From an uncultured bacterium (lineage in GTDB: Bacteria > Chlamydiota > Chlamydiia > Chlamydiales > FEN-1388): a stretch of DNA of 64,000 bases. Of this stretch, positions 3,397 to 8,998 are shown one piece after another. Where the stretch lies: NCBI GenBank assembly GCA_964577935.1, contig CAZOAJ010000004.1:34572-98571 (forward strand), given 5' to 3'. Each line of letters starts with the position of its first letter. Position 1 is the stretch's first letter. The notes beneath the pieces were generated by a model that was given only the letters and a program-made list of their open reading frames with translations, did no database searches and was not told the origin of the DNA. A program made the translations under genes and the position numbers.

Positions 3397-4422
3397 ATGA
3401 CTACAACTATTCTTTACAACTTTATCTTTAAAACACGTCGAGCGCAAAGAGTGCTATCTTATCTCGTAGTATTTCTCTTTGGAAGTATCAACTCGCATGG
3501 TCATGCAAGCATTGATAAAAGCGTCAATTTTAATTTAAAGACCAAACAATCTGATTCCCATGTCCGAACCTACTCCCCTTTAAATTACTATACAAAACAA
3601 CTTCCAGAATCTCCTCAAAATGAAGGCATCCCCGTCTATTATTGGAGAGAACCTAATTGGACTAATTTTGGCGATTTTCTCTCGGTTAAAATGGTCGAGC
3701 GAATGACCGGACAAAACATACAAATCTACTCAAAAAAATCAAATGCAGGGCAGCGCAAGCTCTTGGCAATTGGTTCTATCCTGTATTTTGCGGCAGACAA
3801 TGATGTGGTATGGGGATCTGGAATTAATGGAAAAACGCTCAAAAAAAGCGACTATAGTTTTAAAACGCTTGATGTCCGGGCGATTCGAGGCCCTTTATCG
3901 AAGCATTTTCTTCAGAAAACCATGAATATTGACTGCCCCGATGTCTATGGAGATCCAGCTCTTCTCTTCCCCTACATATTTCCTGAATTCAAGAAGAAAG
4001 AGAATCCTACCTACCCCTACATCATAATCCCCCACTATTCAGAGATGAAATTTTTTCCAAAAATCAAATATCCGAATGTGGTGTATCCAACCGAGCCATG
4101 GGACGTAGTCATCGAAAAAATCTTGGACAGCAAGTTTGTAATTTCAAGTTCACTGCACGGAATCATTATTGCAGAGGCTTATGGCATTCCTGCAAGACTC
4201 TTACGTATTACTGAAAATGAAAAAATTTTTAAGTATCTTGATTATTACTTAGGCACAGGCCGATATGAATTTCGCTATGCTACATCGATAGAAGAAGCAT
4301 TAATGCTTGGCGGCGAAAAGCCATTTTCGTGCGATTTAGAAAGCCTTTACAATTCATTCCCCTTTGAGCTGTGGCCAAACACAACTCCTAAAGAACTCAA
4401 ATTCAACAAGAAAAATTCATGA
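3397..4422 (+). CDS. Polysaccharide pyruvyl transferase family protein with N-terminal membrane anchor
   Basis: N-terminal hydrophobic segment. The C-terminal motif SSSLHGIIIAEAYGIPARLL resembles the conserved S/RxH...GxP motif of the CsaB/WcaK-type pyruvyl transferase family. Its stop overlaps the start of the next gene (ATGA). Confidence 0.6.
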   Translation: MTTTILYNFIFKTRRAQRVLSYLVVFLFGSINSHGHASIDKSVNFNLKTKQSDSHVRTYSPLNYYTKQLPESPQNEGIPVYYWREPNWTNFGDFLSVKMVERMTGQNIQIYSKKSNAGQRKLLAIGSILYFAADNDVVWGSGINGKTLKKSDYSFKTLDVRAIRGPLSKHFLQKTMNIDCPDVYGDPALLFPYIFPEFKKKENPTYPYIIIPHYSEMKFFPKIKYPNVVYPTEPWDVVIEKILDSKFVISSSLHGIIIAEAYGIPARLLRITENEKIFKYLDYYLGTGRYEFRYATSIEEALMLGGEKPFSCDLESLYNSFPFELWPNTTPKELKFNKKNS

Positions 4423-5561
4423 AACGACTATTTCTTAATCTATTGCTTACTTCTCTTCTGACCTTATCAGTCACACAAGCCTCCACGAATCAGGCTTCCG
4501 ATTTTATTGATCTTGAAAAAGAAATGATGGATGACTTTGTTTTAGAGACAAAAAAGATTGAAATTCCAGGCTATCCGGATGCATTTAATCCTTCAATCAT
4601 ACGATGGAATAGCTCCCTTCTCTTAAGCTTTCGTCTAGGAAAAAGCCGTGATTTTAATCCCGAAGATCAAAATCAAGTCTTGATGAGTTTTCGTATCCGA
4701 GATCCAATAAGCGGTTCGACAAATGGAATCGGCCTTGTCATTTTAGATGAAGATTTTAATCTTAAAAGTTCCCCTCAGGTTCTTGATATACCCCATACAA
4801 ATCCAGAATTTGCTTTACGGCAACAGGACCCAAGACTTGTTGCGATCGGAGAGAGACTCTTCATTGTCTACAGCAATATGATTGAGGGAAGCTGCCTTCC
4901 TGAAATTCGCAGGATGTTCTTTGCAGAACTCTTTTACAATGGAGAAGAGTTTTACACTGGGGTTCCTGAGTGCATTGTGAAATTTGATGGGGAGTCGGAG
5001 TCAAGATGGCAAAAAAACTGGGTTCCATTTGACTACGAAGGAGAATTATACCTAGCCTATAGCCTTGTTCCGCATAAGATTCTTAAACCAATCGTAGGGA
5101 CTGGAAGCTGCGAAACAGCAGCCTCTAGCCTTGGTTTAATCAAGTGGAAATGGGGAGTTCTTCGAGGCGGCACTCAAGCACTTTTAGATGAAGGTGAATA
5201 CCTTTCATTCTTTCATTCATCAATTCCTCTTAAATCTGCTCATTCTGAAGGCAAACAAATTACTCATTACTTTATGGGAGCATATACCTTCAGTTCTAAG
5301 CCTCCTTTTGAGATCAAAAGGATCAGTCCAAAGCCTATTGTTGGCAAAGATTTCTATCATGGACCCGCTCATAAAACCTGGAAGCCTTTACGATGCGTCT
5401 TCCCTTGTGGGTTTGTTGCTGACAACGACTACGTTTGGGTCGCCTATGGAAGACAAGATCATGAAGTATGGGTTGCAAAAATGGACAAAAAAAGACTCAA
5501 AGAAAGCCTTGTTCAGATTCCAGAAAAAATTGACATCAAAAACTCATCAAGTGCGGATTAA
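4419..5561 (+). CDS. Secreted GH130/GH43-like beta-propeller glycosidase/phosphorylase-family protein (paralogue A)
   Basis: Signal peptide (MKRLFLNLLLTSLLTLSVTQA). Blade-like motifs are FNPSIIRW, QDPRLV, KNWVPFDYEGELYLAYS, FFHSS, YFMGAYTF and VFPCGF..WVAYGRQDHEVWVA. Clearly paralogous to 5590..6702. Confidence 0.5.
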   Translation: MKRLFLNLLLTSLLTLSVTQASTNQASDFIDLEKEMMDDFVLETKKIEIPGYPDAFNPSIIRWNSSLLLSFRLGKSRDFNPEDQNQVLMSFRIRDPISGSTNGIGLVILDEDFNLKSSPQVLDIPHTNPEFALRQQDPRLVAIGERLFIVYSNMIEGSCLPEIRRMFFAELFYNGEEFYTGVPECIVKFDGESESRWQKNWVPFDYEGELYLAYSLVPHKILKPIVGTGSCETAASSLGLIKWKWGVLRGGTQALLDEGEYLSFFHSSIPLKSAHSEGKQITHYFMGAYTFSSKPPFEIKRISPKPIVGKDFYHGPAHKTWKPLRCVFPCGFVADNDYVWVAYGRQDHEVWVAKMDKKRLKESLVQIPEKIDIKNSSSAD

Positions 5562-5589
5562 GGCATTGGACGCATGAGGGATTGGAAAT

Positions 5590-7518: not shown

Positions 7519-7851
7519 TTAACGAGAACAAAACAGTTCTATACCACACTCCAAAATTAGAACAACTATACTTGTCAAAATGGGAAGAAAAGTAAAGAGA
7601 GACATCCTTTTGTAGTCTCTTGCAAGATACTTGAACCACATTTTGAAGATTGATACCGGAATTGAAATTGGAATACAAAATACGGGCAGTATGATGCTTA
7701 ATATGCTAAGACTACTCATATCGGGCCTCAAGAAATACACACTTGTGAAAAGAGCTCCGAAGAAAACAAAAGGATAAATTACAGCATAGATGATCGTCAT
7801 AGAGAGAATGAACCACTTAGCCATTTTTTTGCTTTTGACTTGCGTTTCCAT
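7519..7851 (-). CDS. Small 3-TM membrane protein (tandem paralogue 2)
   Basis: 110 aa, collinear similarity to 7166..7501. Confidence 0.6.
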   Translation of the reverse strand: METQVKSKKMAKWFILSMTIIYAVIYPFVFFGALFTSVYFLRPDMSSLSILSIILPVFCIPISIPVSIFKMWFKYLARDYKRMSLFTFLPILTSIVVLILECGIELFCSR

Positions 7852-7942
7852 GTTCCCTTCTCTGTTTCAATGATTTTATTGACAAGCAACTCCAAATATC
7901 TCACAAAAAAGCATGAAAGGCTATGTTCATGAGGGGCTATGT

Positions 7943-8998
7943 TTATGGCTGTAAGAAATGAGCAATCGCTGAGCTTATGTCGTCAGGAGAGACGTCACGT
8001 ATGCAAGCTCCAGTTGCACAGCTCCGAAGAACCGGACAACGAAAATCGAAGCTTCGCCCATACGGACATGTTCCCTGGTAAACTCTTCGATTATGTTTTT
8101 TAGGAAAATAGGCTTCAAAACGAGAGGGTCCAAATAAACCAAATACCGGAACATCAACTGATGCTGCAAGATGCAGAGGAACAGAATCCATACCTACAAC
8201 AAGGCAACTTTGCTTCATAAGGTGTTGTAGAAATGGAAAACTTGGTCTGATTAAATGCTGATTGGGACTTCGTAATAGATGCTTTAATGAATCGATTTCT
8301 TTAGACTCACTTCCTCCTCCAGAGATTAAAATCAGAGAAGGAGAAAATACTTCATCGAGCTTGTTTAAAGATGAAAATAGCTTTTCGAGAGGATATGTTT
8401 TATTTATCCATTTTGACGAGGGGCACACAATCCACAAAGGCTTATCGCTTTTATTTCCAACCAACATTTCATCAAGCCGAGATTGCTCTTGAAGGGTTAG
8501 TTCTAAAAGATGTGACTTCGGCTCAAAGTCAGATTCATCGCCAAACGTCTTTTTGATGAGGCCCAGATATCGGTCCCGGGAGGAAACAACTTCTGGCATC
8601 GATATTTTCATGGAATAGGCAAAACTTGCAGGCCATTCGGCGCATTCCTTCTGCACCCATCCAACTTTATTATCGCCGTTTGCAGTAAGAACACAGAGAG
8701 AAGACTTGATATTTCCTTGAAGGTCAAAGACATAGTCATATCTCTTTGCTCTCAATAAAGCCAATGCCTTTTGAAGCTCCTTCCATCCATTGCGAGTGCA
8801 TATGTTTTTTCGAATTGATCGGGTGTTAATCGGTATTGAGCAAGAGACTAATGGATGCCTTTCTATAAGCTCAGAATTTTCTTGTTCCACAACCCAATCG
8901 ATTTCGGCAGTCGGAAATTTTGTTTTAATATAATCGAGCACACCCCACGACTGAACAATATCCCCTAGCGCTGAGAGTTTAACAATAAGGATTTTCAT
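7943..8998 (-). CDS. Glycosyltransferase family 9 (ADP-heptose:LPS heptosyltransferase-like)
   Basis: N-terminus MKILIVKLSALGDIVQS and C-terminal GMDSVPLHLAA..VPVFGLFGPS are typical of the WaaC/WaaF family. Confidence 0.8.
   Translation of the reverse strand: MKILIVKLSALGDIVQSWGVLDYIKTKFPTAEIDWVVEQENSELIERHPLVSCSIPINTRSIRKNICTRNGWKELQKALALLRAKRYDYVFDLQGNIKSSLCVLTANGDNKVGWVQKECAEWPASFAYSMKISMPEVVSSRDRYLGLIKKTFGDESDFEPKSHLLELTLQEQSRLDEMLVGNKSDKPLWIVCPSSKWINKTYPLEKLFSSLNKLDEVFSPSLILISGGGSESKEIDSLKHLLRSPNQHLIRPSFPFLQHLMKQSCLVVGMDSVPLHLAASVDVPVFGLFGPSRFEAYFPKKHNRRVYQGTCPYGRSFDFRCPVLRSCATGACIRDVSPDDISSAIAHFLQP

Follow-up and report, generated by a model that had tools for sequence, protein, structure and literature searches.

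A conserved, predicted exported cassette of an ExoV-like pyruvyltransferase and two GH130-like beta-propellers in a chlamydia-like bacterium

We analysed a 64-kb stretch of DNA (64,000 nucleotides of contig CAZOAJ010000004.1, hereafter the window) from an uncultured bacterium, in which the gene of an ExoV-like pyruvyltransferase (PyrT) is followed on the same strand by the genes of two proteins resembling glycoside hydrolase family 130 (GH130a and GH130b). The three genes, at positions 3397-6702, form a real functional unit that recurs with the same gene order in environmental Chlamydiota, and their products are all predicted to be exported. With a probability of about one half, we propose that this cassette encodes a self-contained extracytoplasmic three-enzyme module, which would build or trim a beta-linked mannoside-like glycan and provide it with a pyruvate cap. 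The adjoining gene of the glycosyltransferase family GT9, which the original prediction had placed in the same envelope-glycan cluster, appears from its synteny to be a chance neighbour.

Conservation and gene order of the cassette

Species-representative genomes were scanned for relatives of the cassette, yielding 172 stretches, and all locus counts given here refer to the best 79 loci. The order PyrT, 'a'-type GH130-like gene and 'b'-type GH130-like gene, colinear on one strand, was found in 66 of the 79. Extra GH130-like copies are present in nine loci and fusions of the pyruvyltransferase to a GH130-like protein in three, while a few loci contain just an 'a' gene or are interrupted by the end of a contig. 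The fusion proteins (P0151, P0234, P0368 and P0375) exhibit a single N-terminal signal, then the pyruvyltransferase and then the propeller. The carriers are mainly environmental Chlamydiota and metagenome-assembled genomes (MAGs) labelled Verrucomicrobia, and the cassette family is also present in the cultured amoeba symbiont Parachlamydiaceae HS-T3. The 'a' and 'b' propellers are the products of an ancient duplication.

An exhaustive profile search at E ≤ 1e-30 revealed a large family, with 618 clusters at the 50% identity level. Remote members of the GH130-like family also contain other domains: P0432 (L092, 1810-4464) is a fusion of a signal anchor, a GT2-like domain and an FkbM methyltransferase, P0495 is fused to a polytopic membrane domain with TPR repeats and P0407 to a protein kinase domain. 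Judged by domain content, the fusions to GT2/FkbM or to membrane/TPR domains point to glycan assembly rather than breakdown.

Several genes found around the cassette were considered as core members and rejected, being lineage-specific neighbours only: an ABC ATPase, efflux components, MetAP, PolX, EamA, FAD_oxidored and the pair of a GDP-fucose-synthase-like epimerase and RmlC. This pair lies 3' of the cassette in one lineage (L009, L011, L013 and L024), whereas an EamA/DMT-family transporter is encoded near the cassette in eight loci and a secreted PF12831 FAD oxidoreductase (FAD_oxidored) in seven.

The closest genome is a MAG deposited as 'Bacteroidetes bacterium BWOrgHeat_Nextera28_MAG1' (L006 and L088; JABDGV010000002.1 and Ga0206912_1001), which presents chlamydial synteny. 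Considering that this synteny is shared and that its PheS, IF3 and L20 are 77, 80 and 91% identical to those of the window, the 'Bacteroidetes' label is almost certainly wrong; the 'Bacteroidetes', 'Acidobacteria' and 'Myxococcota' labels on single MAGs were not trusted in general. The three cassette proteins are 62, 59 and 52% identical to those of this MAG, values that match other non-ribosomal genes (GT9 52%, RluA 51% and PheS 77%), and recent horizontal transfer is not needed to explain the high identity of the cassette. Across chlamydial families, PyrT homologues are 55-69% identical, with a long-range conservation equal to that of PheS. Vertical descent under strong constraint is sufficient to account for the history of the cassette, and transfer between lineages is also possible. 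Full-text literature searches found nothing on a pairing of pyruvyltransferase and GH130, nor on a pyruvyl transferase, GH130 or heptosyltransferase in chlamydiae.

The ExoV-like pyruvyltransferase

PyrT matched the Pfam family PF04230 (PS_pyruv_trans) with 51.5 bits (cut-off 25.3, E 1.8e-13). Residues ~19-38 form a signal peptide or an anchor, a linker modelled with low confidence follows up to residue ~72, and the catalytic domain comes after it. The closest named relative found is ExoV, the ketal-pyruvyltransferase of S. meliloti succinoglycan, with 24% identity over 89% coverage (E 5e-7) in a tblastn search against plasmids, in which a Croceibacterium homologue was 40% identical to PyrT. 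PyrT and ExoV have in common the motifs NFGD, GS, GSG, D159-R161-xx-R164-GPL, D186-P187, S-x-H254-G and F278-K279.

As single-protein and profile searches of PDB sequences with PyrT gave nothing meaningful, residue equivalences were bridged through ExoV. Residues R161/R164, H254 and K279 are invariant, also in ExoV, and they match by motif order and spacing, without direct alignment, the Arg, His and Lys residues that bind phosphoenolpyruvate (PEP) in CsaB (R148, H308 and K328) and in Pvg1p (R217, H339 and K361) (PMC10435577). The R306-equivalent of PyrT is a serine, likewise in ExoV; where Pvg1p and CsaB present R-x-H, the PyrT family and ExoV present S-x-H. Since the motifs shared with ExoV parallel the PEP-binding residues of CsaB and Pvg1p, PyrT is probably a PEP-dependent ketal-pyruvyltransferase of the ExoV subfamily.

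The AlphaFold2 (AF2) model of PyrT has a predicted local distance difference test score (pLDDT) of 84.8, and its top Foldseek match in the PDB is the yeast protein Pvg1p (5AX7, E 1.8e-4, probability 1.00). Through this match the model exhibits the two-lobed alpha/beta fold, with a TM-score of about 0.37 that is low in part because residues 1-72 are disordered. Pvg1p, located in the S. pombe Golgi, resembles PyrT in its N-terminal membrane anchor; its catalytic domain is lumenal and pyruvylates a terminal beta-linked hexose (PMC6801904). Nevertheless, the two proteins are only ~14% identical, and Pvg1p is supplied with PEP by the Pet1p/Pet2p transporters. ExoV, in turn, differs from PyrT in having no signal peptide and in acting in the cytoplasm on an undecaprenyl-diphosphate-linked repeat unit (PMC6801904). 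The ExoV gene lies in the exo cluster with glycosyltransferases and a flippase, whereas the PyrT gene is paired with GH130-like genes only.

The two GH130-like proteins

By sequence, the assignment of GH130a and GH130b to GH130 is borderline, with 26.5 and 27.4 bits against PF04041 (Glyco_hydro_130), barely over the cut-off of 26, but it is clear by predicted fold. The best 44 Foldseek PDB matches of the GH130a AF2 model (pLDDT 85.7) are all GH130 or GT108 proteins (best E 4e-12, TM-scores 0.5-0.66), and they comprise phosphorylases, BT3780-type hydrolases, the synthase Uhgb_MS and the Leishmania GT108 mannosyltransferases. The two proteins had been described from the DNA as secreted paralogues, which agrees with their 51% identity and their predicted signal peptides, that of GH130a being MKRLFLNLLLTSLLTLSVTQA.

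Searches of PDB sequences, with the sequence or with a profile, gave short local matches only, and the residue equivalences were for this reason bridged through plasmid-borne canonical GH130 genes. The GH130-like protein itself had no tblastn match among plasmids, hence there is no evidence of plasmid carriage for its gene. In the profile comparison, Asp137, within QQDPRL, is paired with the catalytic Asp of EDPR and with D141 of a Lin0857-like protein, while Asn57 and Arg92 align with the Asn of the -1 and the Arg of the +1 subsite, respectively. The invariant His266 aligns with the inorganic phosphate (Pi)-binding His (H231 of UhgbMP), Tyr284 and Asp347 with the GH130 Tyr and the O4/O6-binding Asp (D304 of UhgbMP), and Lys199 matches the +1 Lys/Arg by strand pattern. 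Across 158 sequences these seven residues show little or no variation, and Glu349 is invariant. The catalytic Asp and the -1 subsite Asn/Asp of GH130 are then represented by D137, N57 and D347. At the position of the phosphate-binding Arg168 of UhgbMP, the alignment places Ser/Thr215, and His219, four residues further on, is invariant; this stretch is unreliably aligned (global hhalign and manual alignment). Together with the residues of PyrT described above, the catalytic-type residues appear intact in all three cassette enzymes.

The two orthologue groups differ immediately before the catalytic Asp. A Gln is found there in 79 of 80 'a' sequences, where GH130 phosphorylases and mannosyltransferases have Glu or Tyr, and Glu or Asp is found at position 136 in 76 of 78 'b' sequences; the other key residues are kept in both groups. 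A Glu/Lys pair as in the 'b' type is a signature tied to beta-1,2 linkages (PMC7660257, PMC4599007).

According to the published rule, GH130 phosphorylases have an Arg/His pair and no signal peptide, and GH130 hydrolases a Glu pair and a signal peptide (PMC4599007, PMC7660257). The proteins of the window differ from the first class by the Ser/Thr that the most plausible alignment puts at the Arg position and by their predicted signal peptides, the His being kept. Compared with the BT3780-type hydrolases, a signal peptide and K199 are present and a His is kept where Glu is expected, BT3780 itself being outside the alignment. The secreted beta-1,2-mannosidases BT3780 and BACOVA_03624 have in common with the GH130-like pair the five-bladed propeller, the signal peptide, the catalytic Asp in an (E)D-x-R motif, the +1 Lys and the O4/O6-binding Asp. 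In these hydrolases, however, Glu227 and Glu268 replace the phosphate-binding Arg and His, whereas the window family keeps the His (H266), and the identity is ~14%. Lin0857, Teth514_1788/1789, Uhgb_MS and the Leishmania MTPs (GT108) resemble the window family in fold, in the catalytic Asp, in the His and Tyr near the nucleophile site and, for the 'b' type, in the E/K pair. These phosphorylases and mannosyltransferases are cytoplasmic and without signal peptide, whereas the window family is predicted to be exported and its Arg168-equivalent is not evident. On aligned residues and predicted signals, the GH130-like family fits neither published class, as it would be exported and yet keeps the catalytic Asp and the phosphorylase-type His.

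Predicted export of the cassette proteins

Export was scored with a simple hydropathy criterion on the N-terminal segment. A hydrophobic N-terminal segment was detected in 87 of 105 GH130-like proteins and in 104 of 119 PyrT homologues, compared with one of 119 GT9 homologues; most of the homologues failing this criterion are just below the threshold or apparently truncated at the N-terminus. ExoV and the Croceibacterium protein are without such a segment. Each exported protein also presents two conserved cysteine residues, C180/C312 in PyrT and C185/C231 in the GH130-like proteins, those of PyrT being absent from the cytoplasmic ExoV. All three cassette enzymes are predicted to be exported via the Sec pathway, with signals that are family-wide. 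PyrT, by carrying a predicted export signal, departs from the compartment in which a ketal-pyruvyltransferase would be expected to meet PEP, namely the bacterial cytoplasm or a Golgi equipped with a PEP transporter.

The N-terminus of PyrT presents a positively charged N-region, a 12-residue hydrophobic core and small residues (GHA), and its homologues have ordinary signal peptides. The segment that the original prediction had read as a membrane anchor could therefore equally be a cleavable signal peptide.

Proposed function of the module

We propose that the module acts outside the cytoplasm, i.e. in the periplasm, at the cell surface or in the inclusion lumen, and that all three enzymes would act on one glycan. 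The two GH130-like enzymes would add, transfer or trim beta-linked mannose-type residues, and PyrT would attach a 4,6-pyruvate ketal to a beta-linked terminal hexose and so create an acidic epitope. Beta-linked sugars are the acceptors of ExoV, GumL, CsaB and Pvg1p alike (PMC6801904). PEP would be needed outside the cytoplasm, and it could be provided by an exporter or by the host. As transporters of PEP and of nucleotide sugars are known in the DMT superfamily, the EamA gene found near some cassettes is a lead for this supply.

Several points weigh against this proposal. We know of no PEP in the bacterial periplasm. The prediction of export is based on sequence, and clustering of all the flanking open reading frames (ORFs) of the 79 loci gave no consistent fourth partner. 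In the comparison with GH130, no clear equivalent of the phosphate-binding Arg was found, and no hydrolase Glu pair is evident at the aligned positions. The characterised bacterial ketal-pyruvyltransferases are all thought to act at the cytoplasmic face (PMC6801904). A signal peptide in GH130 has so far meant a hydrolase and not a synthase (PMC4599007, PMC7660257), and for this reason a trimming or degradative role is equally compatible with the data.

A bolder version of the proposal, which we regard as tentative and would sooner doubt than accept, is that the cassette represents the first bacterial extracytoplasmic ketal-pyruvylation system, with exported GH130-like enzymes of a new mechanistic class, having phosphorylase/transferase-type residues, and that it would make an as yet undescribed acidic beta-mannoside-type glycan of the envelope or the inclusion, or pyruvylate host glycans.

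The enzymes could instead be host-directed effectors which, after Sec export and then a type II system or vesicles, would remodel host glycoconjugates in the inclusion lumen or the host cytosol. We consider this unlikely, although those compartments contain PEP, phosphate and sugar nucleotides, so that the problem of PEP supply would disappear. The only known lumenal pyruvyltransferase, Pvg1p, is located in the eukaryotic Golgi and is fed by PEP transporters (PMC6801904), and it is also the best structural match of PyrT. Most carriers of the cassette belong to obligate intracellular lineages, and the related protein composed of a signal anchor, a GT2 domain and an S-adenosylmethionine-dependent methyltransferase also needs cytosolic-type cofactors. 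Secretion past the periplasm is nevertheless purely conjectural.

Next in order, and also improbable in our view, comes nutrient scavenging, in which exported beta-mannosidases, or phosphorylases yielding mannose-1-phosphate, would degrade the Man-beta-1,4-GlcNAc of the host N-glycan core or protist beta-mannans. The eukaryotic hosts are rich in mannosides, the catalytic Asp is conserved along with the residues of the -1 subsite, and the phosphorylase-type His266 would suit phosphorolysis; the characterised exported GH130 enzymes are, moreover, hydrolases (PMC4599007, PMC7660257). Scavenging leaves unexplained, however, the obligatory partnership, at times as a fusion, with a transferase that adds pyruvate. 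The BT3780-type Glu pair is not evident, the cassette neighbours include no sugar transporter and no gene of downstream catabolism, and GT2 and methyltransferase domains are found fused to remote family members.

The neighbouring GT9 gene

The GT9 protein matched PF01075 with an E value of 4e-24. Among the NCBIfam models it scored best against TIGR02193, heptosyltransferase I (HepI), with 160.3 bits, under the equivalog cut-off of 185.3. The protein is colinear with WaaC/HepI over the full length, at 23% identity, and its residues D13, K200 and D271, invariant in the alignment with E. coli WaaC/WaaF, are the equivalents of WaaC Asp13, Lys192 and Asp261, for which catalytic roles have been described (PMC5713226). 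A search for homologues returned 500 proteins at E ≤ 1e-10, and many of the matches listed are from Parachlamydiaceae/Chlamydiota and are named heptosyltransferase I. HepI-like GT9 genes being common there, this gene is an ordinary feature of environmental chlamydiae. It differs from WaaC in its linkage to rluA and pheS instead of to lipopolysaccharide (LPS) core genes, and in an extra Cys-rich motif. This motif, QGxCPYGKxFxxRCPxLRxCxTGAC, lies in the C-terminal third of the chlamydial GT9 proteins (the window gene, P0008, P0020, P0030 and P0054), is absent in WaaC/WaaF and may be a metal-binding insertion.

The block infC-(rpmI)-rplT-pheS-rluA-GT9, converging on the NUDIX gene and then MazG, is conserved in the closest MAG (L088) and in a Protochlamydia MAG (L090). 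In the closest MAG one extra gene, with a CbiA/DRTGG domain, lies between GT9 and NUDIX, where there is no cassette, the cassette being on another contig than GT9. A close GT9 homologue beside the cassette was found in 0 of the 79 related loci; the single GT9-like match near cassette relatives is weak (40 bits) and lies ~3 kb from the fused gene in L065. Because the relatives have rluA-GT9 facing NUDIX without the cassette, the adjacency of GT9 and cassette in the window is attributed to a lineage-specific insertion, which on this synteny consists of the cassette and three orphan membrane genes. As the cassette is inserted between otherwise neighbouring genes, GT9 appears to be an LPS-core-type gene unrelated to it. 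The base composition of the insertion gave no sign of recent foreign origin.

The original prediction had read PyrT, the GH130-like enzymes and GT9 as one candidate envelope-glycan cluster, taken here as one for LPS core or exopolysaccharide (EPS), that would make a heptose-containing, possibly pyruvylated surface glycan. The adjacency of the genes in the window, the HepI catalytic residues kept in GT9 and the ExoV-like character of PyrT fit it, but this adjacency is limited to the window genome, the loci and relatives just described largely refute it, the cassette and GT9 are on opposite strands, the cassette proteins are predicted to be exported whereas GT9 has no signal, and no Wzx/Wzy, ABC-exporter or ADP-heptose genes are nearby, so that we judge it very improbable. 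The fit is also poor because the predicted export conflicts with the cytoplasmic lipid-linked assembly of LPS and EPS. Initiating or elongating glycosyltransferases, a flippase or polymerase and an ABC exporter were not found between positions 930 and 14461, nor were the ADP-heptose genes gmhA, hldE, gmhB and hldD within the 64-kb window. Only the three-gene cassette is conserved, with flanks that depend on the lineage, which is not the pattern of a polysaccharide or LPS biosynthesis cluster. What stands of the earlier cluster is the unit of PyrT, GH130a and GH130b; the membership of GT9 does not, and a pyruvylated surface glycan is possible.

Locus layout and genomic context

The seven ORFs are as originally reported (Table 1), with the signal peptides, the three small membrane ORFs and an ATGA overlap, read directly in the sequence at 4419-4422, between the PyrT stop and the GH130a start; the family assignments were also borne out by hidden Markov model matches to PF04230, PF04041 (twice, borderline) and PF01075. 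PyrT, GH130a, GH130b and the small membrane gene TM147 form a plus-strand unit with gaps of -4, 28 and 9 nt, and it converges with a minus-strand unit of pheS, rluA, GT9, TM110 and TM111. A weak sigma-70-like match lies at 3176-3205 of the intergenic region, such matches being no commoner than in shuffled sequence; the promoter and terminator scans gave results no better than those of the shuffled controls.

Table 1. Features of the cassette region (positions in the window).
Position	Strand	Feature	Pfam
2629-3087	+	NUDIX hydrolase gene, left boundary of the putative insertion	PF00293
3088-3396	+	309-nt intergenic region 5' of the cassette, presumed promoter site, without ORF	
3397-4422	+	PyrT, probable ExoV-like ketal-pyruvyltransferase, predicted exported, 341 aa	PF04230
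4419-5561	+	GH130a, predicted exported GH130-like five-bladed beta-propeller, 'a' type, 380 aa, Gln136-Asp137	PF04041
5590-6702	+	GH130b, predicted exported GH130-like beta-propeller, 'b' type, 370 aa, Glu-Asp before the catalytic motif	PF04041
6712-7155	+	TM147, small membrane protein, 147 aa, 9 nt 3' of GH130b; two-helix hydrophobic hairpin	
7166-7851	-	TM111 and TM110, two paralogous small membrane proteins (7166-7501, 111 aa; 7519-7851, 110 aa)	
7943-8998	-	HepI-like GT9 glycosyltransferase, 351 aa; neighbour, apparently not a member, of the cassette	PF01075

The three small membrane ORFs encode hydrophobic products, form singleton clusters and have no family match in Pfam or NCBIfam. The TM111 and TM110 products are 42% identical to each other. 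A homologue of TM147 was found in none of the 79 related loci, and those of TM110/TM111 are absent from the same loci, from the closest MAG and from the Protochlamydia MAG. TM147 is a lineage-specific fourth gene of the operon, and TM110/TM111 are a lineage-specific end of the pheS-rluA-GT9 unit. The adjacent hydrophobic helices of TM147, at residues ~36-88, are like the bilobed hydrophobic domain of chlamydial inclusion-membrane (Inc) proteins.

The suggestion of a chlamydia-like host also held. The closest GT9 and GH130-like relatives are from Parachlamydiales/Chlamydiota MAGs, the flanks of the window are syntenic with the Protochlamydia MAG and a CT398-like protein is encoded in the window; on these grounds, we regard the host chromosome as chlamydia-like. 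Identical proteins are present in one NCBI assembly and two Logan assemblies. The window also contains the housekeeping genes of MurB, a Mur ligase, CdaA-YbbR, cytochrome bd, aconitase, Kdp and RNase P RNA.

Other features were observed along the window. A second glycosyltransferase, of the GT4 family and unrelated to the cassette, is encoded at 27544-28821 (minus strand), directly 3' of the cdaA-ybbR pair. At the usual position of thrS, before infC-rpmI-rplT-pheS, a 590-aa ORF (12689-14461, minus strand) without Pfam match exhibits a weak colinear similarity (E 0.002) to a threonyl-tRNA synthetase (ThrRS)-like gene of the Protochlamydia MAG and may be a degenerate ThrRS-like paralogue. Tandem genes with collagen triple-helix (G-X-Y) repeats (PF01391) at 46747-48180 and 48248-49687 (both plus strand; E 3e-38 and 6e-35) coincide with the sole GC rise of the window (0.44-0.46 compared with ~0.40). 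Eukaryote-type domains are represented by a Ser/Thr protein kinase domain at 51850-52962 (plus strand; PF00069, E 3e-23) and by a weak match to a Myb-like DNA-binding domain at 39853-40818 (plus strand; E 6e-6).

Significance

The components of the cassette all belong to known superfamilies; what is new is the predicted export of an ExoV-like protein, a GH130-like subfamily with mixed features and their fixed association. For annotation, the lesson is that an adjoining GT9 'heptosyltransferase' is not to be taken as a member of the module. The cassette challenges two rules, namely that bacterial ketal-pyruvyltransferases are cytoplasmic and that exported GH130 enzymes are hydrolases without phosphate-site residues. 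If extracytoplasmic pyruvylation is true, PEP or some other donor would need a way of leaving the bacterial cytoplasm.

Chlamydiae are usually described with minimal glycans, i.e. a truncated LPS and a peptidoglycan ring or sacculus. As the cassette is conserved, predicted to be exported and made of carbohydrate-active enzymes, it suggests an additional glycan, be it in the envelope, in the inclusion or on the host. Its function is directly testable, since the cultured amoeba symbiont Parachlamydiaceae HS-T3 carries the cassette.

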